From contig JAGDZS010000007.1 of assembly GCA_049115595.1 (NCBI GenBank), positions 217,219 to 281,218 on the forward strand: a stretch of 64,000 nucleotides of DNA, in the 5' to 3' direction. The notes below the pieces were generated by a model. That model saw nothing but the letters and a program-made list of their open reading frames with translations, had not been told where the DNA came from and made no database searches. The first letter of the stretch is position 1. Each line of letters begins with the position of its first letter. A program made the position numbers and the translations under genes. Source of the DNA: Flavobacteriaceae bacterium. GTDB taxonomy: Bacteria; Bacteroidota; Bacteroidia; Flavobacteriales; Flavobacteriaceae. This document shows, one piece after another, positions 6,668-30,321 of this stretch.

Positions 6668-6874
6668 AATTTAAAAGAGTTTTTTGATTATTTTTTATGA
6701 TCTGTATTAACGAGTCAATTAGGATTGCAAACGAAGTTACTCGAAAAGTAAATGATAGTCAATTATCTACAAATAAAACAGGTGTTTATACCTAGTTTTA
6801 AAACGAAGTTTTTTTTTCTAGATAGTTATGTCCATATTTATATAATATTATAGAATAAACTAAACCAAAAACGT

Positions 6875-7840
6875 ATGTTAAGTAGAAGTCAATTAGAAAG
6901 TATTATGAAAGTAGGAAGATCTATCAGCCTTGCAAAAGCTGGAGATCATGAACTTGGATTATTAAAACAATTACCTGGACTATGGACAAACTTACCAAGT
7001 TTACCTGGACGTGGTTGGAATATGATTGCGTTGCCTTTTGCGAGTGATGCAACAAAAGCACCTATTAATTATCGACTATTGGTAAATCAATACAACGAAG
7101 AACTTCGCTTTTCAGAAGTAGATAAGGCTGTCCCAAATCGCGGAATTAAAAAAAATGATGATGGTACAGCAACCAATAAAGATCAATTTGTTGCAACCAT
7201 GAGTTATGAACAAACGATTAAACAAGTTGCTGCAACAGATTTTCCATTAAGCGGATTAGCTGGCCCAGCTGAGTTGCCTATTCATCATGAGCCTGGACTT
7301 TTCTTATATATGGCTAATGAGGCAACTGATGGACTTGAGTATGCTAGATTAGGAACAATTCCGCATGGAAATTCAATATTGGCTTTAGGGAAAGGAAAGG
7401 CACATAAAGGAGCTCCCGTAATTCCAGATGAAAATGGATTACCTATTGGAGTAAATCATGATTTAGAAGGTGCATATTTAGAGCCTTATAAACATTTTCA
7501 TGACAATCCTTTTAAAGGTGTTTTTGATCCAGTAGATCCAAATGCTCTTTTAAAGGAAGCTAATGAAGGAGTGGAAATTGTAAAAACAACTGAATTTGTA
7601 TTTGATACGAAGTTAGAATCAGGCGGTATTTCTAATATCCCTTTTATTGAGAGACAAGCAGATGCAACAGAAATGACTTCGAGGTTTTGGATTCAGGAAT
7701 TGGCGGAAAAAGATGCTGCTGGAAACCCTAAGTTAAGACTTCAATATACACAAACCGTTTTCTTGGATTTCTTTAAGAATTCAGATGGAGAGTTAATTCG
7801 ATGGCCACATGTTTCTATTAACACCTTGGAGAAAGCATAA
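6875..7840 (+). CDS. heme-binding protein, probable FMP-type peroxidase family
   Basis: LPGRGWNMIALPF, YNEELRF, IHHEPGLFL, RLGTIPHGNS, LQYTQTVFLDF, WPHVSINTL motifs recalled for this family. Confidence 0.6.
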   Translation: MLSRSQLESIMKVGRSISLAKAGDHELGLLKQLPGLWTNLPSLPGRGWNMIALPFASDATKAPINYRLLVNQYNEELRFSEVDKAVPNRGIKKNDDGTATNKDQFVATMSYEQTIKQVAATDFPLSGLAGPAELPIHHEPGLFLYMANEATDGLEYARLGTIPHGNSILALGKGKAHKGAPVIPDENGLPIGVNHDLEGAYLEPYKHFHDNPFKGVFDPVDPNALLKEANEGVEIVKTTEFVFDTKLESGGISNIPFIERQADATEMTSRFWIQELAEKDAAGNPKLRLQYTQTVFLDFFKNSDGELIRWPHVSINTLEKA

Positions 7841-7862
7841 AAGATTAATAGACTATAAATCA

Positions 7863-7890
7863 AAAACCCCAAACTAAGGTTTGGGGTTTT
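7863..7890. terminator. bidirectional intrinsic terminator (copy 3 of the clpC-type terminator)
   Basis: AAAACCCCAAAC-TAAG-GTTTGGGGTTTT, 12-bp stem between convergent genes. Confidence 0.85.
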
Positions 7891-7893
7891 TCT

Positions 7894-8289
7894 TTATTCT
7901 TTTCTTTCTAAATGTATGGTTATTACTTGACCTTGATCAGCTAGTTTTAAATTTAATTCCTTTTTGTTTAAGGTTTCAATTTTAGTTTTTTTCAATTCTC
8001 CCTTTTCTGTTGTAAAGGTAATACTGTCTTTATTCTTTGTGAATGCCCATTTTCCTTTTTGAATTCTATTGTTTGAATTCACTTCATGGTTTCCATCTTT
8101 AAGAAAATTCATCCACATTTCATCGACTTGGCCAGGAGGAGGTGTCTGTTTGTTGCCATTGGCTTCAATATATTTTACATACCATTTCTCTTTACACAAT
8201 AAATCAGTTTTACTGTCTTGGATGTCTGAATCAATCAGGGCACTAGTAAATAGAAGAACAATTGATAATGCTAAGTATTTTAATTTCAT
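7894..8289 (-). CDS. secreted lipocalin-like protein (tandem paralog 2)
   Basis: Signal peptide; LLCKEKWY...FLKDG...KGKW...I..LNKKEL pattern; 131 aa. Confidence 0.7.
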   Translation of the reverse strand: MKLKYLALSIVLLFTSALIDSDIQDSKTDLLCKEKWYVKYIEANGNKQTPPPGQVDEMWMNFLKDGNHEVNSNNRIQKGKWAFTKNKDSITFTTEKGELKKTKIETLNKKELNLKLADQGQVITIHLERKE

Positions 8290-8356
8290 AAATTTTTTAT
8301 TTAAAGATTAACGTAAAACTAACTAAAAAAAAACAAACGTTAGTTTGGGGTTTTCT

Positions 8357-8752
8357 TTATTCTTTTTTGTCCAAAAAAATAGTTACTTCTTGCGTATCGT
8401 CTTTGAAAAATATTTCTAACTCTTTAGAATTTAATTTGTTAATCCTAAAAGCTACATTGATAGTTAGATCAATATTTAAAAGAAGAGAGTCTTTGTTTTT
8501 TGAGAATTTCCATAGACCTTTTTCCTTTTTTATATTTCCATCACCGTTATAGTTACCGTCTTTATGAAAAATCATCCAAGGACTTCCTTTTTCGCTGTTA
8601 GGAATAGTCTCTTTTATTTCACCAGATTGAGTGTATTTCATATACCACTTCCCACTACAAAGTAATTTTTTTTTATCTTTTTGTATGTTGGAGTTAACTA
8701 GTATGCCAGATAATACTATGGTGATAACAGTGATAAGATATTTTAATTTCAT
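8357..8752 (-). CDS. secreted lipocalin-like protein (tandem paralog 1)
   Basis: Same length (131 aa) and same MKLKYL start as 7894-8289; LLCSGKWY...FHKDG...KGLW...INKLNSKEL. Confidence 0.7.
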   Translation of the reverse strand: MKLKYLITVITIVLSGILVNSNIQKDKKKLLCSGKWYMKYTQSGEIKETIPNSEKGSPWMIFHKDGNYNGDGNIKKEKGLWKFSKNKDSLLLNIDLTINVAFRINKLNSKELEIFFKDDTQEVTIFLDKKE

Positions 8753-8789
8753 AGATTTCTTTTAAGTATTAAAAATAAAACTAACGAAT

Positions 8790-8819
8790 AAAAAACCCAA
8801 ACGAAAGTTTGGGTTTTTT
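8790..8819 (-). terminator. clpC intrinsic terminator
   Basis: AAAAAACCCAAAC-GAAA-GTTTGGGTTTTTT immediately after the clpC stop. Confidence 0.85.
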
Positions 8820-8823
8820 ATGT

Positions 8824-11394
8824 TTATTCTTCAGCTTCTGTTCTTGTTTCTTCCGCTTTTTTTCCTTTCTTTATTTTGATGGTAAGTTTGTTTTTCTTCT
8901 CATTTAAATTCATTGAAATGGTATCGCCTTCTGTTAATTTGGAGTTCACGATTTCTTCAGCCAAGGCATCTTCAATATATTTTTGAATTGCTCTTTTTAG
9001 AGGACGTGCGCCATATTTTTTATCAAAGCCTTTGTCTGCTATGTAATCTTTTGCTTTCTCGCTTAGCTTTAAGGTATAGCCCAAACCAGAGATTCTATGC
9101 AACAATTTATCAAGCTCAATATCGATAATTGAATGGATATCTTCTCTTTCTAAAGTATTGAATACAATCACGTCATCAATTCTATTTAAGAATTCAGGAG
9201 CGAACGACTTCTTTAAAGCATTCTCAATAATTCCTTTCGCATGCTCTTCTGATTGTTCTTTTTTCGCAGTTGTACCAAAACCAACACCAGAACCAAAGTC
9301 TTTTAACTGACGAGCTCCGATATTAGATGTCATGATAATAATGGTATTTCTAAAATCAATTTTTCTACCTAAACTATCCGTAATATGTCCGTCATCTAAA
9401 ATTTGCAACAGCATATTAAATACGTCTGGATGCGCTTTCTCGATTTCATCTAGTAAGATAACAGAATATGGTTTTCTACGAACTTTCTCAGTTAACTGTC
9501 CACCTTCTTCATATCCTACATATCCAGGAGGCGCTCCAATTAATCTTGAAATTGCGAATTTTTCCATGTATTCACTCATGTCAATTCGAATCAAAGAATC
9601 ATCAGAATCAAATAACTCACGCGCCAATACTTTTGCTAGTTGTGTTTTTCCAACTCCAGTTTGTCCTAAGAAAATGAAAGAACCAATTGGTTTGTTAGGA
9701 TCTTTCAATCCTACACGGTTTCTTTGAATAGCTTTCACAACTTTAGTAACAGCTTCATCTTGTCCAATTACTTTTCCTTTGATCATTTTTGGAAGTTCAC
9801 TCAAACGACTGGTCTCTGCTTCAGCAACTCTATTTACAGGAATTCCTGTCATCATAGAAACTACTTCTGCAACATTGTCTTCAGTAACAATCTCACGGTT
9901 CAATTTAGAATCATCTTCCCATTGTCTTTGAGCGGACTCTAAAGCAGACTCCATATTTTTCTCATCATCACGTAATTTAGCGGCCTCTTCATATTTCTGA
10001 CCATTGACAGCATTAGTTTTACGTTCACGAATTAATTCTAGTTGTCCTTCAAGTTCTAACACCTGCTGAGGAACAACAATATTTGTAATATGTATTCTAG
10101 ACCCTGCTTCATCTAAAGCATCAATAGCTTTGTCTGGTAAGTATCGGTCTGTCATGTATCTATTGGTTAATTTCACACAGGCATCAATAGCTTCATCTGT
10201 AAAATCAACGTTGTGATGTGCTTCGTATTTTCCTTTGATATTATGCAAAATTTGAATTGTTTCTTCCACGCTAGTTGGATTCACAATGATCTTTTGAAAA
10301 CGTCTTTCTAGTGCGCCATCTTTTTCTATGTTTGTTCTATACTCATCAAGAGTAGTTGCTCCAATACATTGGATTTCTCCTCTAGCTAAAGCTGGCTTTA
10401 ACATGTTAGAAGCATCCAAAGAGCCAGTAGCACCTCCAGCACCAACAATGGTGTGAATTTCATCAATGAATAAGATGATGTCTTCGTTTTTTTCCAGTTC
10501 ATTCATCAGCGCTTTCATACGCTCTTCAAACTGACCTCTATATTTTGTGCCCGCAACTAAACTTGCTAAGTCTAAAGAAACGATTCGCTTATCAAAAAGG
10601 ATTCTCGATACTTTTCTATTCACAATTCTTAAAGCTAAACCTTCAGCAATTGCAGACTTACCTACACCAGGTTCACCAATTAACATTGGGTTGTTCTTTT
10701 TGCGTCGGCTTAAGATTTGAGAAACACGTTCTATTTCTTTATGTCGACCAACAACAGGATCTAACTTTCCATTTTCAGCTAAAGAAGTTAAATCTCTTCC
10801 AAAATTATCTAAAACAGGAGTCTTTGATTTTTTTGGTGATTTTCCTTTTTGAGATTGATCGTATGGATTTGATTTGTCAGAAGATGCAAATTCGTCATCA
10901 TCAGACGGAGTTTCTGCTATCGGGTTTATTGGTAGATCTTCATCTGAGTTTTCTACATGTAATTCTTTGTACAAAGCTTTTGCTTGATCGTAATCAACAT
11001 CATGCTTATTCAACAACTTAGTTGTTGGGTCGTTCTCGTTTCTAAGAATGCATAAAAGTAAGTGTGCAGTATCTATTGCTTCACTCTGATACAATTTGGC
11101 TTCTAAAAAAGTTGTTTTTAAAGCCTTTTCAGCTTGACGCGTTAAATGCAAACTCTTTTTTTGATTTACATCAATAATACTGGGGGCAGCAGGATTAAGT
11201 AATTCTAATCTATTACGCACAATATCTAGATTTACATTGAATGTATCTAGTATCTCAATCGCTTTCCCTTCTCCTTTGCGTATCAAACCAAGTAATAAGT
11301 GCTCTGTTCCAATAAAATCATGGCCTAATCTCAAGGCTTCCTCTTTACTGAAAGTAATCACATCTCTTACCTTTGGTGAAAAATTATCGTCCAT
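8824..11394 (-). CDS. clpC: ATP-dependent Clp protease ATP-binding subunit ClpC
   Basis: Clp N-domain, Walker A GEPGVGKS and [11 protein letters not shown]-type linker, [16 protein letters not shown]. Confidence 0.95.
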
Positions 11395-11660
11395 ATATCG
11401 GGTTTATCTATAATTGTAAATTTAGTCCTTTTTTTAGTAAAAAATTACAAAAAGAATGCCATGAGTCAAATGCTGACAATTTGGCTTGTAAAATAGGCTC
11501 AGAAAGCCTTGTAAATCAAGGGTATAAAAATTGTCGAAAATTTATCAAGAAATGTTGATAACTCTAGGGAATTCAGGTGCTAAAATGTTTGTGAAAAATA
11601 GGAATTATAGTAACTTGCTAGTTATTAAATTTAGTAAAAAATTAACAATACATTTAACGT

Positions 11661-14168
11661 ATGTCAGACGGAGAAAAGTTAATTCCAATTAACATAGAAG
11701 AGCAGATGAAATCTGCTTACATTGATTACTCAATGTCAGTAATAGTTTCTAGAGCATTACCCGATGTGAGAGATGGTTTAAAACCAGTGCATAGGAGAGT
11801 TCTGTTTGGAATGCATGAATTAGGAATTAAAGCAACAGGTTCCTACAAGAAATCTGCAAGAATTGTAGGAGAAGTATTAGGTAAGTATCACCCACACGGA
11901 GATACTTCTGTATACGACTCTATGGTGCGTATGGCTCAAGAATGGAGTGTTCGTTACTTAATGGTAGACGGACAAGGGAATTTTGGTTCTGTAGATGGTG
12001 ATAGCCCAGCAGCAATGCGTTATACTGAGGTAAGAATGCAGAAAATATCAGAAGAGATGTTGTCTGATATTGAAAAAGAAACAGTAGATCAACGATTAAA
12101 TTTTGATGATACTTTGTATGAACCTACTGTTTTACCAACAAGAATTCCTACTCTCTTAGTAAACGGAGCTTCGGGAATTGCAGTTGGAATGGCGACTAAC
12201 ATGGCGCCGCATAACTTAACAGAAGTTATTAATGGAACATTGGCTTACATCGAAAATAGAGATATCGAAATCGATGAACTAATACAACACATAAAAGCAC
12301 CTGATTTCCCTACAGGAGGAATTATATACGGATATGAAGGTGTTAAAGATGCTTTTCATACAGGAAGAGGACGTATTGTAATGCGTGCGAAAGCTGTTAT
12401 TGAAGAGGTAAAGGGGCGTGAGTGTATCATTGTCACTGAAATTCCATATCAAGTCAATAAGGCAGACATGATTAAAAAAACTGCTGAATTGGTAAATGAT
12501 AAGAAGCTAGAGGGGATTGCTAATATTCGTGATGAGTCTGATAGAAAAGGAATGCGTATCGTTTATGTTTTAAAACGCGATGCAATTCCTAACATTGTCT
12601 TAAACAAGTTATTCAAGTATACTAGTCTACAAACATCATTCAGTGTCAATAATATTGCATTGGTAAATGGTCGTCCTGAACAGTTAAACTTGAAACAACT
12701 GATTCATTATTTTGTTGAACACAGACATGATGTAGTTGTCCGTAGAACTAAATATGAATTAAAGAAAGCTGAAGCAAGAGCACATATTTTAGAAGGTCTA
12801 ATTATAGCTTCTGATAATATCGATGAGGTAATTAAAATTATTAGAGGATCTAAGAATGCAGATGAAGCACGAGAGGCATTAATTGCAAGATTTGAATTGA
12901 CTGAAATTCAAGCCAAAGCAATTGTAGAAATGCGATTACGTCAGTTAACTGGTTTAGAACAAGACAAGTTAAGAGCTGAGTTTGAAGAGATCATGAAAAC
13001 AATTGCCGATTTAAAGGACATCTTAGAAAATGAATCTAGACGCTATCAAATCATTACAGATGAGTTAGTTGCCATTCGAGATAAATATGGAGATGAACGC
13101 CGTTCTCAGATTGAGTATGCTGGAGGAGATATGAGTATTGAAGACATGATACCGAACTCGAAAGTTGTTGTAACAATTTCTAATGCTGGATATTTGAAAA
13201 GAACCAATTTAGATGAATACAAGGTTCAGAATAGAGGGGGAAGAGGTCAAAAAGGAGTTGCCACAAGGAATGAAGACTTCCTAGAGCACTTGTTTGTAGG
13301 AACCAACCATCAATACATGCTATTCTTTACACAAAAAGGAAAAGTATTTTGGATGCGGGTTTATGAGATTCCAGAAGGGGGTAAGACTTCGAAAGGAAGA
13401 GCAATGCAAAACTTAATCAATATTGAACAAGACGATAAAGTAAAAGCATTTTTGGTAACCCAAGATCTAAAAGATGAAGACTACATTAATAGCCATTATG
13501 TAATTATGGCCACGAAAAGAGGTCAGGTGAAGAAGACTTCGCTTGAGCAATATTCTCGCCCTAGAACAAATGGAATTAATGCCATTACTATTCGTGAGGA
13601 TGATGAGTTGCTAGAAGCTAAATTAACGACAGGGGATAGTCAAGTAATGTTGGCTTTAAAATCTGGAAAAGCAATTCGTTTTGAAGAAGCGAAAACTAGA
13701 CCAATGGGAAGAACAGCTTCTGGAGTTCGAGGAATTACTTTAGGACATGAAAATGATGAAGTAATTGGAATGGTTGCTGTGAATGATATGGAGAGTAATA
13801 TTCTTGTTGTTTCTGAAAAAGGATACGGAAAACGTTCAAAATTAGAAGACTACAGAATTACAAATAGAGGAGGTAAAGGTGTTAAAACATTGAATATCTC
13901 AGAAAAAACAGGTAATTTAGTCGCCATTAAAAATGTAGATGATTCTAATGATTTAATGATCATCAATAAATCGGGTATAACCATTCGTATGGCTGTAGAA
14001 GATTTACGTGTTATGGGGAGAGCAACTCAAGGAGTTAAGTTAATTAATATTAAAGACTCTGATAGCATTGCAGCCGTAGCGAAAGTTATGCATGAAGAAG
14101 AAGAGCCTGAAACTGAAAATGAAGATGGCACAGAAATTGAAAACAATACTAACGAGAACCAAGAATAA
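11661..14168 (+). CDS. gyrA: DNA gyrase subunit A
   Basis: [25 protein letters not shown] catalytic Tyr, GyrA-box QNRGGRG, C-terminal pinwheel repeats. Confidence 0.98.
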
Positions 14169-14190
14169 CTGTTGAATTAAATAGATACAA

Positions 14191-15435
14191 ATGAAAACTA
14201 AATTAATAGCATTTTTTATAGGATTAGTAACAATGTCCTCTTTTGCACAAAAAAATGAATTAAAAACTGCAGAGAAAGCGATAAAGAAGAAAGATTATGC
14301 TGCTGCTACAGCAGCGTTAAAAACAGCTGAGCCTTTAATTGCTAATGCAGAAAAGTATAAAGCTAAATTTTACTTTTTAAAAGGTCAAACGTATGCAGCT
14401 AAGAAAGAGTATAAAGTTGCTGCAGAGGCATACAATACACTATTAGACTATGAAAAAAAGGCAGGAAAAAGAAAGTATACTCAACAAGCAAAACCATTAC
14501 TTGAAAACTTAACTTCTGATTTAACAAATAAGGCTTTTGCTCAATATGAGTCTAAAGATTATAAAAATGCTTATGAAAGTTTCTATTTAAGATACACTTT
14601 AGCTAAGCAGGATACTATGTTTCTTTCAAACGCAGCACAAATTGCTTTTCAAGCAGGTGAATTAGAAAGATCATTAGAATTGTATAAAAAGTTGAAAAGT
14701 TTAGGGTATACAGGAATTGTAACCATTTATTCTGCAAGAGAAAAAGAAACAGGCGCAGTTGAAACGTTTGGAAGTAAAGCACAGAGAGATCAGTTTGTGA
14801 AGCTTGGAGCGTATATCAACCCAAAAGATAAAGTGTCTGAATCTAAGAGAGGAGAGATTATTAAGAACATAGGTTTAATTTTAACAAGACAAGGAAAAGT
14901 AGAAGAAGCTGTCATTGCGGTTAAAGAAGCTAGAGCTGCATTCCCAGAGGATATGACACTGTTACTTACTGAAGCTGATTTATACATTAAATTAGAAAAG
15001 ATGGATAAGTTTGGTGAGTTAATGGAAGTAGCTGTTAAGAAAGATCCGAACAACCCAATTTTGTATTATAACTTAGGTGTTGTTAGTTATAACCAACAAA
15101 AATTAGATGACGCTAAAAAGTATTACTTAAAAGCATTAGAGTTAAAACCAGATTATAATGATGCTTATATGAATCTTGCAGTAACAATTTTAGATGGAGA
15201 GAAAGCAATCATTGAAGAGATGAATAAGAACCTATCTGATTTTGATAAGTATGATGAATTAGCATTAAAACAAAAAGCATTATATAAAGAAGCAATGCCT
15301 TATTTAGAAAAAGCAGATGCTGGTAGTAGAAGCTTAGATACAGTAAGAACTTTATTGAATATCTATGAAACTCTTGAAGTTGAAGAAAAAGCAAAAGTTT
15401 TTAGAGAGCTGTATAAAAAGATGAGAGCTAAATAG
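14191..15435 (+). CDS. tetratricopeptide repeat protein with signal peptide
   Basis: Signal peptide; YYNLGVV...ALELKPDY TPR motifs; follows gyrA. Confidence 0.85.
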   Translation: MKTKLIAFFIGLVTMSSFAQKNELKTAEKAIKKKDYAAATAALKTAEPLIANAEKYKAKFYFLKGQTYAAKKEYKVAAEAYNTLLDYEKKAGKRKYTQQAKPLLENLTSDLTNKAFAQYESKDYKNAYESFYLRYTLAKQDTMFLSNAAQIAFQAGELERSLELYKKLKSLGYTGIVTIYSAREKETGAVETFGSKAQRDQFVKLGAYINPKDKVSESKRGEIIKNIGLILTRQGKVEEAVIAVKEARAAFPEDMTLLLTEADLYIKLEKMDKFGELMEVAVKKDPNNPILYYNLGVVSYNQQKLDDAKKYYLKALELKPDYNDAYMNLAVTILDGEKAIIEEMNKNLSDFDKYDELALKQKALYKEAMPYLEKADAGSRSLDTVRTLLNIYETLEVEEKAKVFRELYKKMRAK

Positions 15436-15456
15436 ATTTTAGTATAAAACGTACAT

Positions 15457-15488
15457 AAAAAAACCGTTCCATTTGGAACGGTTTTTTT
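15457..15488. terminator. bidirectional terminator
   Basis: AAAAAAACCGTTCC...GGAACGGTTTTTTT between convergent genes. Confidence 0.85.
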
Positions 15489-15489
15489 A

Positions 15490-16260
15490 TTATATAATCT
15501 TTTTAATGACTCGTAACTTGTGTGTATGTGTCTTGGTGTCTACATTGTAGATTCCACTATGATCCAATCGATCAATTCTTACCTTTCCATGCGCATGAAT
15601 AATAGAATAGTCATTCATAATAATTCCCACATGAGTAATAATACCTTCATTGTTATCAAAAAAAGCTAAATCTCCAGGTTCACTTTCTTCTATAAAACTA
15701 AGAACATCACCTTGCGTAGCCTGATCTTTAGCATCTCTCTTTAAATGATATCCGCATAGTTTGTATACAAGTTGTGTAAATCCAGAACAATCAATTCCGA
15801 AAGGAGTTTTTCCACCCCATAAATATGGAGTGTTTAAAAAAACAAAGGCTTTTTGAATAATTTCTACACGTGCTAATTTTCCAGTAAAAGTTGCTCCTTG
15901 ATATTGATAGCTGTCGTTTCCTAAATAGCACTCACCGTTTTCATAAAAAGGAAGCCTAGCTCCTAAAGGGATTGTCATAAGGTTGTTACTTTTGTCAGTA
16001 ACAAAATCAATTAGCTCACCAGCGTAGACAGGCTCAGAGTCCGAAATTTTAGAAAAAGTATCTTCATCAATTTCTATATATTGCTTGTTGTCTACATATC
16101 CTTCATATCCATCAAAAGAGAGTCGTACGTGGCTCCATTTTTTGGTCTTACTTAACACCTTAAAATGTTCTCCAAAGACTATTTGAGAAACCATTTCAGA
16201 AGCATCAGAAGATTCTAAACGTAGTGGTACAATACTTAAATTACAGATGCCGTAGAGCAT
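15490..16260 (-). CDS. NlpC/P60 (C40) peptidase with N-terminal SH3-like domain
   Basis: PYLWGGKTPFGIDCSG catalytic Cys, THVGI, IHAHG. Confidence 0.92.
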   Translation of the reverse strand: MLYGICNLSIVPLRLESSDASEMVSQIVFGEHFKVLSKTKKWSHVRLSFDGYEGYVDNKQYIEIDEDTFSKISDSEPVYAGELIDFVTDKSNNLMTIPLGARLPFYENGECYLGNDSYQYQGATFTGKLARVEIIQKAFVFLNTPYLWGGKTPFGIDCSGFTQLVYKLCGYHLKRDAKDQATQGDVLSFIEESEPGDLAFFDNNEGIITHVGIIMNDYSIIHAHGKVRIDRLDHSGIYNVDTKTHTHKLRVIKKII

Positions 16261-23517: not shown

Positions 23518-24738
23518 TTATTTTACTTTTATTGCTATCCTATGGCATGCATTGTTTAAGTATCCTTTTGGATTCCAGCCAGGCAATAACATGGGTTGCG
23601 ATACATCATTTGTATCAGTAGCTTTTACCCAAACTTCATAATATCCTTTTTTAGGAAACTTTACTGAGGCAGAAAAATGCTGCCAAGCGAATCTGTTTTT
23701 AGGAGTTTCTAGAGAACAAGGCTTCCATGTCGCTCCAAAATCAATTGAATATGCTGCTTTTGATACTTCCAATTCACCAGCCCAAGCATGACCTCTTATA
23801 GAAAGTTCTTTTCCTTTTTTTATTATACCGCCAGACTTAGGGTGTGTAATTAAAGACTTAATGGGCATCGATTCAATAATGCACATATCTTCATCTTTCA
23901 CTGTGTCCCCTGGAGCTACAGGTTCACAAGGAACTCTATAAGCCTTACCTGTCATTTTTGTTCCATCGTGCACAATATCGCGAATGCTAATTCTATTCAC
24001 CCATTTCCCTGAAGCGGAAGCTGGAAAACCTCCTGCGATTAAGCGCAGTGGATATCCATGGGCAATAGGAATACTTTTTCCATTCAATTTAAAAGCTAAC
24101 AATGTTTCTTCTTGCATTGCTTTTGAGATGGGTACACCTCTAGAAATAGGTTCTTTTTTTGGATCGCCACTTAAATGAGTATCAGCAGAGTGATAGGCGA
24201 TGTATACAGCGTTGTCCTTTACTCCAACATCTTCTAACACATCTTTTAAACGAACACCTGTCCACTCAGAACAATGAATTGCTCCAACTGTCCACTGATT
24301 TCCTTTGGCAGGAGGATCAAATTCACTCCTCCCATTTCCTCCACATTCTAAAGTAAGCTGATAGGTATGGTGTTTAAACTTTGTTTTTAGTTCTGAAAGT
24401 GTATATGTCTTTTTTTTGACAGCAGATTCTCCATCGATTACAAGTGTCCAATTCTTAACATCTATATCTTCAGGAATTCGTCCGTTATTACGGATAAACA
24501 TTTTTGAACTTGGAGTTACTTTGTCATCCAGTAAATGTGCTTTTGCCTCAATATTCCATGGTTTATTGTTTAGCACAACCATTTCTTTATCCTTATTAAA
24601 TAATTTATAAGGGTCCGTGCTTTGTAAAGCTAGAGGAGTATAGCCTTGCTCCATATTAGTTCCGAAAACTATTTCAGTTCCTATAAGGGCAGCAAAAGAA
24701 CTTAACGTTGCTTTTTTTACAAATTCTCTTCTTTTCAT
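23518..24738 (-). CDS. sulfite oxidase-family molybdoenzyme (SorA-like), Tat-exported
   Basis: KRREF twin-arginine signal; FIRNNG, LECGGNGR (Mo-ligating Cys), HGYPLRL, KWV, C-terminal dimerisation domain. Confidence 0.92.
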   Translation of the reverse strand: MKRREFVKKATLSSFAALIGTEIVFGTNMEQGYTPLALQSTDPYKLFNKDKEMVVLNNKPWNIEAKAHLLDDKVTPSSKMFIRNNGRIPEDIDVKNWTLVIDGESAVKKKTYTLSELKTKFKHHTYQLTLECGGNGRSEFDPPAKGNQWTVGAIHCSEWTGVRLKDVLEDVGVKDNAVYIAYHSADTHLSGDPKKEPISRGVPISKAMQEETLLAFKLNGKSIPIAHGYPLRLIAGGFPASASGKWVNRISIRDIVHDGTKMTGKAYRVPCEPVAPGDTVKDEDMCIIESMPIKSLITHPKSGGIIKKGKELSIRGHAWAGELEVSKAAYSIDFGATWKPCSLETPKNRFAWQHFSASVKFPKKGYYEVWVKATDTNDVSQPMLLPGWNPKGYLNNACHRIAIKVK

Positions 24739-24893
24739 TTATGTAAATAAATTTTGATGCTAGAATTCTATTTCTGAGTATAATATTACGACAATAAATT
24801 TAATGAATCGAATGATTTTTTTTGCATAAACTCATCAAGTTAGACAAGTGTTTATGCATAGAAAAAGTTATTTTTTGATGTAAACATAAATAA

Positions 24894-24920
24894 AAAAGAG
24901 GAATTATGAATTCCTCTTTT
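24894..24920 (-). terminator. intrinsic terminator downstream of the small peptide gene
   Basis: AAAAGAGGAATT-ATG-AATTCCTCTTTT 12-bp stem, T-rich on the minus strand. Confidence 0.75.
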
Positions 24921-24960
24921 CCACCAATTTTTTTCTGTAAGCTATAAAGCTAAGTAATTA

Positions 24961-25128
24961 TTACGTTATACAATCCTCCCAAACCCCATCATGATCTACA
25001 GGACAGCCTACCGTACCATCTAAGCATTTTTCTTCACTTAATGTTACTCCTCCAGAAATTGAATTCAATAATTTTTCAGAAAGAACTAATTCTGTTCTTT
25101 TTTTATAAACATCTAATGATTTACACAT
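24961..25128 (-). CDS. 55-aa double-glycine leader peptide (RiPP/bacteriocin/signal-peptide-like precursor), missed by the ORF track
   Basis: Manual translation: MCKSLDVYKKRTELVLSEKLLNSISGG-VTLSEEKCLDGTVGCPVDHDGVWEDCIT; A-rich sequence before the ATG and a dedicated terminator. Confidence 0.75.
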   Translation of the reverse strand: MCKSLDVYKKRTELVLSEKLLNSISGGVTLSEEKCLDGTVGCPVDHDGVWEDCIT

Positions 25129-25249
25129 AAATTTATGTTTTTTATAATTTACCTACTCTATTAAGCTTTTCGGTTTCCGCTTTTTTCTATATAATATATA
25201 CAAGATTTATGTTAAATATAAGTAATATTATGTTGAATGTGTAGTTTTT

Positions 25250-26797
25250 TTAATAAGATTTTTTACCATTTAAAAAAGCAGAATTATAGCTAATACCAAT
25301 GTTGAAAGTAGGAGAGCTTAACGAGCCACCACTTGCTTTTATGTAGCCTATTGAGCTTCGCAGCATATACTTTTCTGTAAGGTTGTAATTTAGGCCAACA
25401 CTAGGTTTTATAATAAGGCCTTCACCAGTACTGATATCTCCACCACCAGCACCACCAAGTAAAGCTTGTGCAAAAAGACTCACTTTCTTTTTAAGAAAGT
25501 AATTGGTCTGCAGTCCCATTCCAACAATTCCTTCTGCGTATGCACCAGCGTTCCCAAAATTTGCAAATGAAGTTTGTCCAGCTAAGTAGACATTCTTATT
25601 AAGATGATAATTTAATTGTAAAGAAATTTGATATAAATTCTCTGTAGGATTTCGAGCTCTTTTTGCATTTAGATATACATCTTGTTTTACAACTACTTCA
25701 AAGCCTTTGAACTTTACTTTTGAGTTCTCATTAAAACCTTCTACTCCGTTAATATCTGTATAGTATTTTAAACCTACCCCAAAGGTAGAGCTAGAGAAAA
25801 ATGAATTAGGACTCATTAAAAAACCTTTGTTTATAGAAAGATAAACGTTGTTGGTAATATGTTGTTCAATAGAAATGTCTGGGTAAATTAAAACACCGCC
25901 TTTTGTTTCAACACCCCCGCCACCGCCAGCACCAACTCCAAACTTGGCAAGAATATTCGTTCTGTTTTTATTTAAAGAAAAGTGACGACCACCTCCTAAA
26001 AAAATGTTCATGTAACCAGCAGGGATGCCATCATAAGCACCATCAAATTTGGCAAAGAAAAACCAACGTTTATTAACGTAAGAGTTGATTTCAAAACCAG
26101 CCAATCGTATGGTGCTACCTTTTAAAGAGTTTCCCTTAGTATCTTGTGAATCCCCTGTTACCGATAGGTTATTCAAGTGCATCATGAAAGAAAATCTTTT
26201 GGCTTTCTTATCCCAATCCGAATCTTGTAAACTTTTTACATCATACTCTTTTTCAGCATTGTTTTTGGTTGCATAGTCTAAAGAAATAGGAATCTGTAAA
26301 GCGATGTTGAATTGTTTGTTATTGATGTTTCCTCCATCAAAGAAATTGATGTAGCTGTATCCAGCACTTAAGGAAAATTTTTCAAACTCAACTCCAAGAT
26401 TCATATGAGGTAAAATGAAAGCACCACCACCATCAGGAGCGCCGGCACCACCACCACCACCAAAATGAATACCAGTATCTACATAAAGCTGACTATTAAA
26501 ATAGGCCTTGTAACCTGCATTCACTCCTAAGGTAAAAAAACCACCTCTTTTTCCTCTTACAGATCCATATATTCCTAGACCTGCGTAGAAGTTATTGAAA
26601 CTAAGGTTGTAATGAATTCCAGTTAAGCCCATATGAACTTCGTCAGGCCCTAAAGGATTGGGAGGCATATTCACCGATAAGTAATCGATCGCAAAGAAAC
26701 CTTTCTGGATTTTCCTTTCAGGAATCGTTGTATTGTCCTGTGAAAAAACCCACAAAGAATTCATAATAAAAAGAATGAGTAATATTGATTTTCTCAT
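25250..26797 (-). CDS. outer-membrane protein with three tandem beta-barrel-like repeats
   Basis: Signal peptide; three ~165-aa repeats each with G.GGG....G.G..I.P and alternating aromatic strands; last gene of the fdh operon. Confidence 0.7.
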   Translation of the reverse strand: MRKSILLILFIMNSLWVFSQDNTTIPERKIQKGFFAIDYLSVNMPPNPLGPDEVHMGLTGIHYNLSFNNFYAGLGIYGSVRGKRGGFFTLGVNAGYKAYFNSQLYVDTGIHFGGGGGAGAPDGGGAFILPHMNLGVEFEKFSLSAGYSYINFFDGGNINNKQFNIALQIPISLDYATKNNAEKEYDVKSLQDSDWDKKAKRFSFMMHLNNLSVTGDSQDTKGNSLKGSTIRLAGFEINSYVNKRWFFFAKFDGAYDGIPAGYMNIFLGGGRHFSLNKNRTNILAKFGVGAGGGGGVETKGGVLIYPDISIEQHITNNVYLSINKGFLMSPNSFFSSSTFGVGLKYYTDINGVEGFNENSKVKFKGFEVVVKQDVYLNAKRARNPTENLYQISLQLNYHLNKNVYLAGQTSFANFGNAGAYAEGIVGMGLQTNYFLKKKVSLFAQALLGGAGGGDISTGEGLIIKPSVGLNYNLTEKYMLRSSIGYIKASGGSLSSPTFNIGISYNSAFLNGKKSY

Positions 26798-26801
26798 GAA
26801 A

Positions 26802-27620
26802 TTAATAGTTGATTTTTGAAGGGTTTGCGTAAATAGTCATTTTATTTTCTCTACTGAATCCAATTAAACAGACCCCAAATTCTTTGGCATAATCTATCGC
26901 CAAACTAGAACAGGCAGACACTGCAATAATAACTGGAATTTTAGCAAAGAATGCTTTTGATACGATTTCATAAGAAACACGTCCACTCACCAACATACAA
27001 AATGCTTCTTGTATTGTTTGGTCATTGATTAGTTGTCCTACAGCTTTGTCTACTGCATTGTGTCTTCCTATATCTTCTTTTAAAGTAAGCAACTGATACT
27101 TTTTATTAAAGATAGAAGCTGCATGACTTCCACCAGTATGCTTAAATGTTTCTTGAAGTTTAGCCATTTTAAGAGACATCTCCTTGATGAACTCAGAAGA
27201 TAATGATTGCTCATTTTTTAGAGCTTCACCCTGTGGTTTGATATCGTTCAGTTCTTGTTTTCCACAGATTCCACAGGAAGAAACGGAAAGAAGAGTACGT
27301 TTGTTTAGATATCCTTTTCCAAGTTTTTCTTTTGAAATGGTGGCGTTAATAATGGAGAATCCATTTTTTTGTTGTTCTATAATTTCAAGAACTAATTCAT
27401 CCTTTGATCTATAAATATCTTCTGCATACAACAAACCTCTAATTAATTCGAAATCATCGCCAGGTGTTCTCATCACAACAGTATATGATTCGCTATTAAT
27501 ATTAATTTGCAAAGCAGCCTCTACAACAATAGCATCATGAACTTTCGATGAATTTGTATTGGTTACTTGAATTCCATCGTAAGAGAAAAAGGATTTATCT
27601 ATAAGATTATATTCGCTCAA
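26802..27620 (-). CDS. fdhD: formate dehydrogenase accessory sulfurtransferase FdhD
   Basis: MRTPGDD.EL..G.L, SSCGICG, TGGSHAA, EDIGRHNAVDK, SGRVSYE. Confidence 0.96.
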   Translation of the reverse strand: MSEYNLIDKSFFSYDGIQVTNTNSSKVHDAIVVEAALQININSESYTVVMRTPGDDFELIRGLLYAEDIYRSKDELVLEIIEQQKNGFSIINATISKEKLGKGYLNKRTLLSVSSCGICGKQELNDIKPQGEALKNEQSLSSEFIKEMSLKMAKLQETFKHTGGSHAASIFNKKYQLLTLKEDIGRHNAVDKAVGQLINDQTIQEAFCMLVSGRVSYEIVSKAFFAKIPVIIAVSACSSLAIDYAKEFGVCLIGFSRENKMTIYANPSKINY

Positions 27621-30321
27621 AATCTACAGCTACAACTTTATATTCTGGTGTTAAAGTTTCTTTATCACCAACACTTCCTGTAATGATATTAATAAAAACT
27701 TCGGGCTGGTGGAATGTAGTTCTTAAAACACCTCGCTTTACATTTCTAGAGTATTTAATTGGTATATTAACACTTCCTCTGTCTGAAAAAATTCGAACGA
27801 TCTCGTTATCTTCAATTCCTTTTTTGATCGCATCTTTAGGATGAACTTCTAAGATGTCTTTTGCCAGAATCTTTTGGTTGTCCGTTCTACGTGTCATGGT
27901 TCCAGAATTGTAATGTTCTAATTCTCTACCTGTAGTTAAGATAAATGGATATTGATTTCCATGTTCTACAATTTCAGGAGATTCTTCAAAATCGAAATGA
28001 TGAAAAGTTCCTATTCCTTTTTTAAACTGACCATCGACATGCAACATTTTTGTGTCTGTTCCATCTTCTTTGATAGGCCATTGCAAACCATTTTCACCTA
28101 AGCGTTCCCAAGAAAGTCCTTTCATAAATGGAATTACATCAGCAATTTCTTCAATTACATTTGCAGCATCATAGGTTAATCCAGTTGGTTGTTTGTATCC
28201 TAATCGATCCATGATGTCAATGATAATCTGTCCATCAGGTTTTGTATTTCCGATAGGCTCAACCACTTTATTTACACGTTGTACTCTTCGTTCTCCATTG
28301 GTAAAAGTTCCATTCTTTTCAAAATAAGAAGAAGCGGGTAAAATAACATCTGCCATTTCAGTGGTTGCGGTCATAAATAATTCTTGAACTACAATCAATT
28401 CAACTTGCTCAAAAGCTTTAATACTATGATTTGTATTTGGATCCGTCATAATGGTGTCTTCTCCCATTATGTATAACGCTTTGATTTTTCCATCAATGGC
28501 AGCATCTAACATTTCAGGAATCTTCAAACCGTTGGTTGTTGGCATTTTTTCGATTCCATACTTCTCTGCATAATATTGCTGTATGTCTTGTTTGCTCACG
28601 TCTAAATATCCTGCTCCTTGGTGAGGTTGAACTCCCATATCTGCAGCTCCTTGTACGTTGTTTTGACCTCTTAAAGGATTTAGTCCCACTCCATTTTTAC
28701 CAATATTACCAGTCATCATTGCCAAGTTAGACAGTAGCATTACTGTTTTACTACCTTGAAAATGCTCGGTTACACCCAATCCATGGAATTCCATCGCTCT
28801 GTCTGCACTTGCGTATGCAATAGCAGCTTCTCGTACCACTTCTTTAGAAACACCTGTCAGTTTTTCAAGTTCATCCATGTCTAAATTTTCTACATGGCTT
28901 TTAAACTCATTATATTTCTCTGTGTAAGATTCGATAAAGTGTTCGTTTACTAAGTTCTCCATTACAATGTAATGTGCCAACATGTTTAAAATAGCGACAT
29001 TAGTTCCTGGTCTAATTTGTAAAAAGTGAGTAGCTAGTTCAGCTAACTTTGTTTTTACAGGATCTACTACAATGGAAGTGACGCCTTTCATAAAGGCTTG
29101 CTTAATCTTTGCACCCGTAACTGGATGTCCTTTTATCGGATTTGCTCCAAATAAGAAAATAGCATCGGTTTGTTTTAAATCTTCGACTGAATTTGTGGCA
29201 GCACCAGTTCCGAAAGATTGTTGCATTCCCCATGCAGTAGGAGCGTGGCAAACACGTGCACATCCATCAATATTATTAGTTCCAACTCCAACACGAATCA
29301 TTTTTTGCATTAAATAATTCTCTTCATTCGTTGCTCTAGAAGATGAAATCCCTCCAATAGAATCGGCTCCGTATTTATTTTTAATGTCAATTAGTTTGGT
29401 TGCGATAAAATCATAGGCTTCATCCCAAGTAACAACTTCAAACTTCCCATTCTTTTTCATCATCGGCTCTCTTAATCGATCTGGGTGATCATAGAATTCA
29501 AAAGCAAATCGACCTTTTAAACAGGTATGACCTTCATTTACTTCGGCAGTTTCAGGAGCTTGAATTCCTTTTATCTCACCATCAATTACCGAAACATCTA
29601 ATTGGCAACCTACTCCACAATAGGTACAGGTTGTTCTTACCGTTTTGTCGGCTATTAATGTCTTCGTTTCATATTTATCGGTTAACGCTTCTGTAGGACA
29701 AGTTTGAACACACGCACCACAAGAAACACAGGCAGATTCGTCAAAAGAAGTATCAAAACCTTTGATAATGTTTGAAGCAAATCCACGTCCAGTCATATTC
29801 AAGATCATTTCACCTTGAATCTCTTCACAAGCTCTTACGCATCGAAAACAATTAATACACTGTGATAAATCGGATTTAATATATGGATGCGCTCTATCTG
29901 GCTCTATGTCTAAATGATTTGAACCTTCAGGGTAGCGAATATTTGGAACTCCAATTTGCGCAATAGTTTCTTGAAAAGGAGTTGGTTTTTTGTCCTCTGA
30001 AGGAAAAACTTTATCAGAAGGATAATCTGTTAATACCAATTCGACAATATTCTTACGAAGACGTTGCATCTTCTCTGTATTGTGGTAGATGTAAAATCCT
30101 TCTCCAACAGGTGTATGACAAGAAGCCATGGTCCTGGTTGCGCCATCTTTTTCTCTTGCTACTTCTACAGAACAAACTCGACAGGAACCAAAATTCTCCA
30201 ATCGATCATCTTGACACATCGTAGGGATGACATTTTTATTCTCCTCAATTCTTCTAACAAAATCTAAAATGGTTTCGCCAGATTGAAATTCGAAAGCTTC
30301 ATTATTGATATATGCTGTCAT
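27607..30321 (-). CDS. fdhF: formate dehydrogenase alpha subunit (Mo-bisPGD, Cys-ligated, with N-terminal Fe-S domains)
   Basis: 2Fe-2S and two 4Fe-4S Cys motifs, CTYCGVGC, CLKGRF, CARVCHAP, PLRGQNNVQG, molydop-binding C-terminus. Confidence 0.93.
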   Translation of the reverse strand: MTAYINNEAFEFQSGETILDFVRRIEENKNVIPTMCQDDRLENFGSCRVCSVEVAREKDGATRTMASCHTPVGEGFYIYHNTEKMQRLRKNIVELVLTDYPSDKVFPSEDKKPTPFQETIAQIGVPNIRYPEGSNHLDIEPDRAHPYIKSDLSQCINCFRCVRACEEIQGEMILNMTGRGFASNIIKGFDTSFDESACVSCGACVQTCPTEALTDKYETKTLIADKTVRTTCTYCGVGCQLDVSVIDGEIKGIQAPETAEVNEGHTCLKGRFAFEFYDHPDRLREPMMKKNGKFEVVTWDEAYDFIATKLIDIKNKYGADSIGGISSSRATNEENYLMQKMIRVGVGTNNIDGCARVCHAPTAWGMQQSFGTGAATNSVEDLKQTDAIFLFGANPIKGHPVTGAKIKQAFMKGVTSIVVDPVKTKLAELATHFLQIRPGTNVAILNMLAHYIVMENLVNEHFIESYTEKYNEFKSHVENLDMDELEKLTGVSKEVVREAAIAYASADRAMEFHGLGVTEHFQGSKTVMLLSNLAMMTGNIGKNGVGLNPLRGQNNVQGAADMGVQPHQGAGYLDVSKQDIQQYYAEKYGIEKMPTTNGLKIPEMLDAAIDGKIKALYIMGEDTIMTDPNTNHSIKAFEQVELIVVQELFMTATTEMADVILPASSYFEKNGTFTNGERRVQRVNKVVEPIGNTKPDGQIIIDIMDRLGYKQPTGLTYDAANVIEEIADVIPFMKGLSWERLGENGLQWPIKEDGTDTKMLHVDGQFKKGIGTFHHFDFEESPEIVEHGNQYPFILTTGRELEHYNSGTMTRRTDNQKILAKDILEVHPKDAIKKGIEDNEIVRIFSDRGSVNIPIKYSRNVKRGVLRTTFHQPEVFINIITGSVGDKETLTPEYKVVAVDFERI

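Follow-up and report, generated by a model that had tools for sequence, protein, structure and literature searches.

A stand-alone gene for a predicted double-glycine-leader peptide, preceded by a DUF805b RNA motif, in a Flavobacteriaceae genome

A short reading frame in the spacer between the fdh and sor gene groups of a Flavobacteriaceae genome is, to judge from its alignment with two homologues, a protein-coding gene under purifying selection that is conserved in three genomes. We consider it likely that this is a real monocistronic gene and that its ribosomally made product is a predicted secreted double-glycine peptide, which would be exported in trans. The frame had been pointed out in an earlier note on the window (the whole stretch of DNA analysed here, 64,000 nucleotides), and the minus strand at this place translates to exactly the sequence quoted there; a DUF805b RNA motif in the 5' UTR and two homologues of the core had been missed. 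This 5' UTR is the most useful new lead. The features of the unit are collected in Table 1.

Table 1. Features of the peptide gene and its surroundings, in positions of the window.
Feature	Position	Strand	Basis or remark
55-aa precursor gene	24961..25128	-	Product MCKSLDVYKKRTELVLSEKLLNSISGG (leader) followed by VTLSEEKCLDGTVGCPVDHDGVWEDCIT (core); stop codon inside span
Double-glycine leader, residues 1-27	25048..25128	-	HMM of G006 leaders and alignment
Predicted 28-aa mature core	24964..25047	-	Alignment of three homologues and computed peptide properties
DUF805b RNA motif, RF02914	25150..25183	-	48.3 bits (gathering score, 35.6); full model 1-35
Intrinsic terminator of the monocistronic unit	24889..24925	-	17 pairs, then a T-run; -19.6 kcal/mol
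Weak promoter candidate TACACA-17-TATATT	25213..25243	-	Consensus match only

The spacer measures 511 bp, from the start of sorA at 24738 to the stop of a 515-aa gene at 25250, and the frame is its sole ORF of at least 30 aa. Upstream, on the minus strand, lies the fdh group with FdhA (27607-30321), FdhD (26802-27620), and an outer-membrane-like protein of 515 aa (25250-26797); downstream, also on the minus strand, lies the sor group, made up of SorA (23518-24738), a SorB-like cytochrome, and a rhodanese. The 515-aa protein, encoded 4 bp past fdhD, has Gly-rich repeats and matches DUF481 weakly (E 0.022) and no NCBIfam family. The terminator that the earlier note had placed at 24894-24920 is enclosed by the hairpin given in Table 1. 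At the other end of the unit, the promoter candidate lies 29 nt upstream of the DUF805b motif, and TATATTTA in it resembles the Bacteroidota -7 box. The neighborhood of the peptide gene offers no hint at its role, such as a gene for immunity, a receptor kinase, or a metal transporter.

For the reality of the gene, we take the homologues found by phmmer as the decisive result. An exhaustive search of 1.84 billion representative proteins returned two full-length homologues, P0003 (57 aa, from an ENA metagenome contig; E 4.9e-4) and P0005 (64 aa, from Pseudotenacibaculum haliotis KCTC 52127, our genome G503; E 9.6e-4), which score 114 and 105 bits in a search with the three-member profile; a word-index protein search had returned the peptide itself only. 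Two other phmmer matches, P0002 and P0004, are repeat proteins that match 'LNAISGLVT'-like strings and were rejected as homologues. The three-way alignment contains 22 invariant residues, and all of its indels are in frame. Among the three homologues, the first, second, and third codon positions are identical to 0.65-0.75, 0.62-0.68, and 0.47-0.55, respectively, the third position being the least conserved, and pairwise dN/dS is 0.14-0.54 and thus below 1 in all pairs, with dS saturated; this conservation evidence comes from a thin alignment of three family members. In addition, the GC content of the ORF is genome-typical (32%), against 22% in the remaining spacer. The strict LSxxxLxxIxGG-type pattern occurs only three times in the 7.2 million six-frame residues of the 3.86-Mb genome, and an HMM built from leaders of the congener G006 alone ranks the ORF first among 9993 small ORFs (29.0 bits, E 4.8e-7), the runner-up scoring 7.9 bits.

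A rival explanation takes the frame for a product of chance in AT-rich spacer DNA. According to that explanation, the DUF805b RNA alone would be conserved, perhaps as a small RNA gene ending at the terminator, and several observations could be quoted in its favor: an ATG-initiated ORF of at least 55 aa arises in shuffled spacers with P ~0.07, so that length alone is only mildly unusual; the DUF805b block is near-identical upstream of P0003 and P0005 and more conserved in its nucleotides than the coding sequence; and scans of the peptide against Pfam and NCBIfam gave no match, even at E <=10. The same two libraries also miss the obvious double-glycine peptides of the exporter cluster described below. 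A chance frame is nevertheless very improbable in our estimate, as the frame, the start codon, and the stop position are kept at three loci despite in-frame indels of 2-10 codons, all three cysteines are among the invariant residues, and the pattern over the codon positions, the dN/dS values, and the leader score of 29 bits all speak for a translated frame.

The residues conserved in the core are C35, G38, T39, G41, C42, D45, H46, E51, D52, and C53, and the three homologues have in common the invariant core C-x2-GT-x-GC-x2-DH...EDC. With its three members, the family is rare; it adds a small new core to a known class of peptides, the predicted double-glycine substrates of peptidase-containing ABC transporters (PCATs). 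No further member was found with the three-member profile in a 5.8-billion-sequence collection and the GTDB species genomes. Six-frame searches revealed a full-length member in 2 of the 267 species genomes of the GTDB genus, namely, the window's genome and P. haliotis, and no further one among 400 family-wide genomes (1-2 per genus), a sample that includes, besides the window's own, a single genome from this genus. All three copies stand alone in unrelated neighborhoods, and the 10 kb around them encode neither an exporter nor an enzyme for modification. Weak tblastn matches (L006, L007, and L009) were noise inside another gene and were rejected. The position of the gene gives no support, because the region upstream of sorA (itself 73-82% identical) differs in the 11 other sorA-bearing genomes among 60 sampled congeners, none of which has such an ORF there.

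The leader ends in ISGG, with the two glycines at -2/-1, I at -4, L at -7, S at -11, and L at -12. Double-glycine leaders have ~15-30 aa and end in GG (or GA/GS). They are said to follow the consensus LSxxELxxIxGG, in which one side of a helix presents hydrophobic residues at -4, -7, and -12 and mostly also at -15, a description that reportedly goes back to Havarstein in 1995 and Dirix in 2004; the Glu at position -15 is the exception here. The glycines are invariant in the three full-length homologues. Related leaders of the form M-x-KLS-(L/F)-…-(E/D)LL-x-x-I(S/A)GG are found in G006 and G608, where they occur in tandem arrays, and in nine other Flavobacteriaceae genera, and the alignment of this leader family has L20, L21, I24, S25, G26, and G27 invariant. 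The array of G006 has five precursors in tandem, and directly behind them come the genes for an HQxxH-type protein of 378 aa, a C39-ABC exporter of 730 aa, and an HlyD protein of 429 aa. Since these leader homologues adjoin a C39-ABC exporter and HlyD, the leader type is a bona fide exporter signal. The view of the earlier note that the frame encodes a genuine double-glycine-leader precursor is borne out, and leader homologues with a linked peptidase-ABC gene, which it had proposed to look for, do exist in the congener. The AlphaFold model based on the 3-sequence alignment is uninformative (pLDDT 50), with residues 4-24 helical at low confidence, and a sequence search of the PDB gave no match.

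The relatives of this leader in other genomes deserve a comparison of their own. At G006:C1:4208000-4227999 (L016; 8462-14695), and likewise at L031, L035, L037, and L042, tandem double-glycine precursors carry an invariant (T)EN(A/D)CH(D/P) immediately past the cleavage site and hypervariable tails; they adjoin proteins of ~380 aa that contain HQGSH and match neither Pfam nor NCBIfam, a PCAT, and HlyD and, in some genera, CPBP-like membrane proteins. This arrangement looks like an uncharacterised RiPP-type class. The peptide described here resembles these precursors in its homologous leader (48-52% identity, and 29 bits with an HMM built without it) and in the DUF805b motif ~20 nt upstream of the ATG. 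It differs from them in that its core lacks (T)EN(A/D)CH(D/P) immediately after the glycines, that its genome lacks the ~380-aa enzyme, and that it is present as a single copy and not in a tandem array.

The earlier note had seen no C39 exporter in the window and had described the gene as an orphan precursor, and indeed neither an enzyme nor an exporter is found nearby. The window lies on contig C7 of its genome (G000). As to Peptidase_C39, contig C4 has two matches that exceed the cut-off, and C3 has an insignificant one with stops. The genome's catalytic C39-ABC exporters number exactly one, a 728-aa protein at C4:167938-170124 (-), which has the catalytic motif DCGPTC, scores 128.5 bits with Peptidase_C39, matches TIGR01193 at E 1.3e-129, and is 51% identical to the G006 exporter. 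The lack of any C39-domain exporter in the whole genome, named in the earlier note as an argument against its own idea, was thus not observed. With a catalytic exporter present, processing and export in trans are plausible, and the orphan peptide most likely uses this single exporter of the genome.

The exporter cluster (G000:C4:156000-175999, L015, ~6800-15700) combines the 728-aa C39-ABC protein with a 429-aa HlyD protein and ~9 Cys-rich double-glycine peptides, each with 5-7 Cys and all of them acidic. It also encodes a 532-aa protein that combines a C39-like domain lacking the Cys with VKOR and thioredoxin domains; this fusion could dock on double-glycine leaders and oxidise the cargo. The leaders of the cluster peptides are of a different type (MKKSILNIGKALxKxEQKxINGG), and therefore, cross-recognition of our leader by the C4 exporter is an assumption. 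Precursor and exporter are not linked, being located on C7 and C4, respectively, and they are likewise unlinked in P. haliotis, which has the same layout with one catalytic exporter, a 541-aa C39-like (VKOR/Trx) neighbor, and the peptide gene elsewhere. Two more acidic, Cys-rich peptides with double-glycine leaders are encoded at unlinked sites of the window's genome, one of 67 aa at C2:95253-95456 (-) and one of 73 aa, with a DUF805b motif of its own, at C5:587163-587384 (+).

This separation also bears on the idea that the gene encodes a genuine small protein that the C39 exporter leaves uncut, its leader-like N terminus being the relic of a cassette and its 55-aa product remaining inside the cell, for example, as a metal- or redox-active protein. 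The gene is unlinked to any exporter in three genomes, the peptides of the exporter cluster have another leader type, and the set of three Cys, His, and acidic residues could bind metal in the cytoplasm as well. However, the recognition positions of the leader (GG, I/T at -4, L at -7, and a hydrophobic residue at -12) are as strongly conserved across the three homologues as the core, which argues that the leader is under selection, and a catalytic exporter has been kept in both sequenced host genomes. We regard an unprocessed intracellular protein as quite improbable and return to the exported peptide.

The predicted mature core has 28 aa, a computed mass of 3021 Da, a charge of ~-6, and three Cys; across the three homologues, the charge of the core ranges from -5 to -8. 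From this acidity, the earlier note had argued for signalling or metal binding and against a cationic bacteriocin. The argument fails, as all double-glycine peptides of this genome, among them the ~9 Cys-rich ones of the exporter cluster, have acidic cores (pI 4.0-4.8); acidity therefore does not separate the peptide from its bacteriocin-like neighbors. Thioether bonds, which had been suggested as well, are unlikely: the genome, which is 98.4% complete, has no match to the SPASM domain of radical-SAM enzymes (PF13186), and LanC-like cyclases (PF05147) have no match in it or in P. haliotis. Nor does it encode a homologue of the 378-aa HQxxH-type enzyme (tblastn, best E 3.3). With none of these enzymes present, the product is probably unmodified or disulfide-bonded and not heavily modified. 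The Cys-His motif expected ~4-8 residues after the glycines in enzyme-linked family members is also absent, and the core starts with VTLSEEKC. Three cysteines, an odd count, fit poorly with a product held by disulfides only. What is specific to the core is a conserved ligand-like set of three Cys, one His, and Asp/Glu, which may serve in metal binding.

One could also imagine a RiPP precursor whose core is modified before export by an unlinked enzyme that we did not recognise, either by a thioether at T-x-G-C or by Asp-His chemistry. Elsewhere, after all, the leader family is linked to a putative modification enzyme of ~380 aa (HQxxH type), modified peptides often have an odd count of cysteines, and the conserved GT-x-GC resembles a lanthionine ring motif, as in ring B of nisin. 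Against this, the three candidate enzyme types are missing from the genome, the three homologues all stand alone among unrelated neighbors within 10 kb, and the Cys-His motif of the enzyme-linked family members is not found in our core. Pre-export modification is, on balance, improbable, and an unmodified or disulfide-bonded product is what we would expect. In P. haliotis, a 69-aa double-glycine peptide preceded by DUF805b is encoded ~3 kb from a gene for a 358-aa SPASM radical-SAM protein (G503:C12:288569-291741; L091 and L119).

As to the function, PCATs export double-glycine peptides for competition and communication (PMC7018657). The peptide is like known PCAT substrates (class II bacteriocins and microcins) in its 27-aa leader ending in GG, the hydrophobic residues at -4, -7, and -12, and the mature part of 28 aa, and like PCAT systems, the genome has a catalytic C39-ABC exporter and an HlyD adaptor. 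It is unlike them in that gene and exporter are on different contigs and an adjacent immunity gene is missing, and no relation in sequence could be detected between the core, whose homologues in 1.84 billion proteins number just two, and any named bacteriocin or microcin. Bacteroidetocins are Cys-containing peptides with a double-glycine leader, and their loci carry a thiol oxidoreductase (PMC6671954); in those described by Coyne et al. (2019), a leader of 15 aa precedes a mature part of 42 aa with four Cys, and the genes lie inside the export cluster (PMC6671954). What they share with our peptide is the occurrence in Bacteroidota, the leader, the cysteines, and an exporter cluster with a thiol oxidoreductase, which is the VKOR/thioredoxin protein here; with its 27-aa leader, 28-aa core, three Cys, and unlinked gene, the peptide departs from them. 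Sequence similarity to bacteroidetocins was not detected by phmmer in 1.84 billion proteins, the two matches being both stand-alone three-Cys peptides. A disulfide perhaps introduced by the VKOR/thioredoxin protein would parallel the proposal made for bacteroidetocins. Provided that the peptide is exported, its role has a little less than an even chance of being antagonism between bacteria, as with class II microcins or bacteroidetocins; metal binding by the conserved Cys3-His-Asp/Glu set is unlikely, signalling is unlikely to the same degree, and some other extracellular role is slightly less likely still.

The second component of the unit, the DUF805b motif, belongs to Rfam clan CL00115 and reportedly comes from a survey that Weinberg and colleagues made in 2017. 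It is 34 nt long here, lies in the 5' UTR, ends 21 nt before the ATG, and consists of a 4-bp stem with the loop GGAAACCGAAAA, followed by AGAGUAGG. Across 39 copies of the motif, the stem is paired in 147 of 156 cells, with compensatory changes (GC, CG, TA, and AT are all seen at pairs 2 and 4), the loop GGAAnCCGAAAA is conserved like the tail AGAGUAGG, and the distance from the end of the motif to the start codon is 13-36 nt. Our copy agrees with the Rfam family in its full-length match above the gathering score, the covarying 4-bp stem, the conserved 12-nt loop, the tail, and the position in a 5' UTR. In contrast to the family's name, which refers to genes of DUF805 membrane proteins, the motif precedes genes with double-glycine leaders and proteins without a Pfam family, here and in congeners. 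In a sample from six congeners, double-glycine peptides are encoded behind 8 of 30 copies; in most members of the leader family from other genera, the motif is found ~20 nt before the ATG, and it also precedes the first genes of the arrays of G006 and G608. In the main text of Weinberg 2017, DUF805 does not appear, and no literature linking DUF805b to peptide precursors was found.

The genome of the window has seven copies of the motif above the threshold and ~5 below it. One, at C5:587105-587145, precedes the orphan 73-aa peptide mentioned above. The remaining ones (C16:8816-8851, C2:158837-158868, C3:93067-93102, C12:76212-76244, C3:228362-228394, and C6:386432-386469; loci L062-L068) precede genes for proteins of 100-475 aa that have no Pfam family, several of them with signal peptides; some recur behind DUF805b in congeners, namely, a very basic secreted protein of ~300 aa and another protein of 475 aa.

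A reading of the conserved block as an ECF-like promoter (GGAAAC…TAGGTA) was rejected, as the stem covaries and the promoter types upstream differ between copies. Different copies are preceded by a sigma-54-like TGGCAC-N5-TTG, by a TTGCGCAA palindrome, or by nothing recognisable, and no consistent promoter position was found across the copies. In the family of ~300-aa basic secreted proteins, the sigma-54-like element is located ~14 nt upstream of the hairpin (G000:C2:158868, L095, L105, L093, and L102), and a palindrome of the TTATTGCGCAATAA type abuts the motif on C16 of the window's genome and at L089, L091, and L096. Because different promoter-like elements precede different copies, we infer from the sequences that DUF805b would be an RNA element that acts on mRNA stability or translation.

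In our model, the mRNA would start at or just before the DUF805b hairpin and end at the terminator. The 55-aa prepeptide would be recognised by the exporter on contig C4 via its amphipathic leader (I-4, L-7, L-12, and GG) and cut after Gly27, and the core would be pumped out with the help of the HlyD adaptor. The anionic core of 28 aa (3021 Da) would remain unmodified, except perhaps for one disulfide, which could be made by the C39-like/VKOR/thioredoxin protein of the exporter cluster. DUF805b would act post-transcriptionally and coregulate the peptide with other secreted proteins or proteins of unknown function. A bolder version, to which we give little credence, sees in DUF805b the post-transcriptional switch of a "secretome" regulon of Flavobacteriaceae with double-glycine peptides as its commonest cargo, and in the acidic three-Cys/His family an unmodified metal-binding peptide (a Zn/Cu metallophore) and not a toxin, released via the shared PCAT.

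In sum, the analysis adds a validated small gene of the sort that annotation pipelines skip and defines a new three-member core family, C-x2-GT-x-GC-x2-DH…EDC. It also connects a so far orphan motif of Rfam with a defined class of genes: about a quarter of the DUF805b copies sampled in the genus precede genes with double-glycine leaders, and motif and leader stay together as the cores diverge. This provides a testable handle on the action of DUF805b and a cheap, nucleotide-level flag for unannotated genes of secreted peptides in Bacteroidota.
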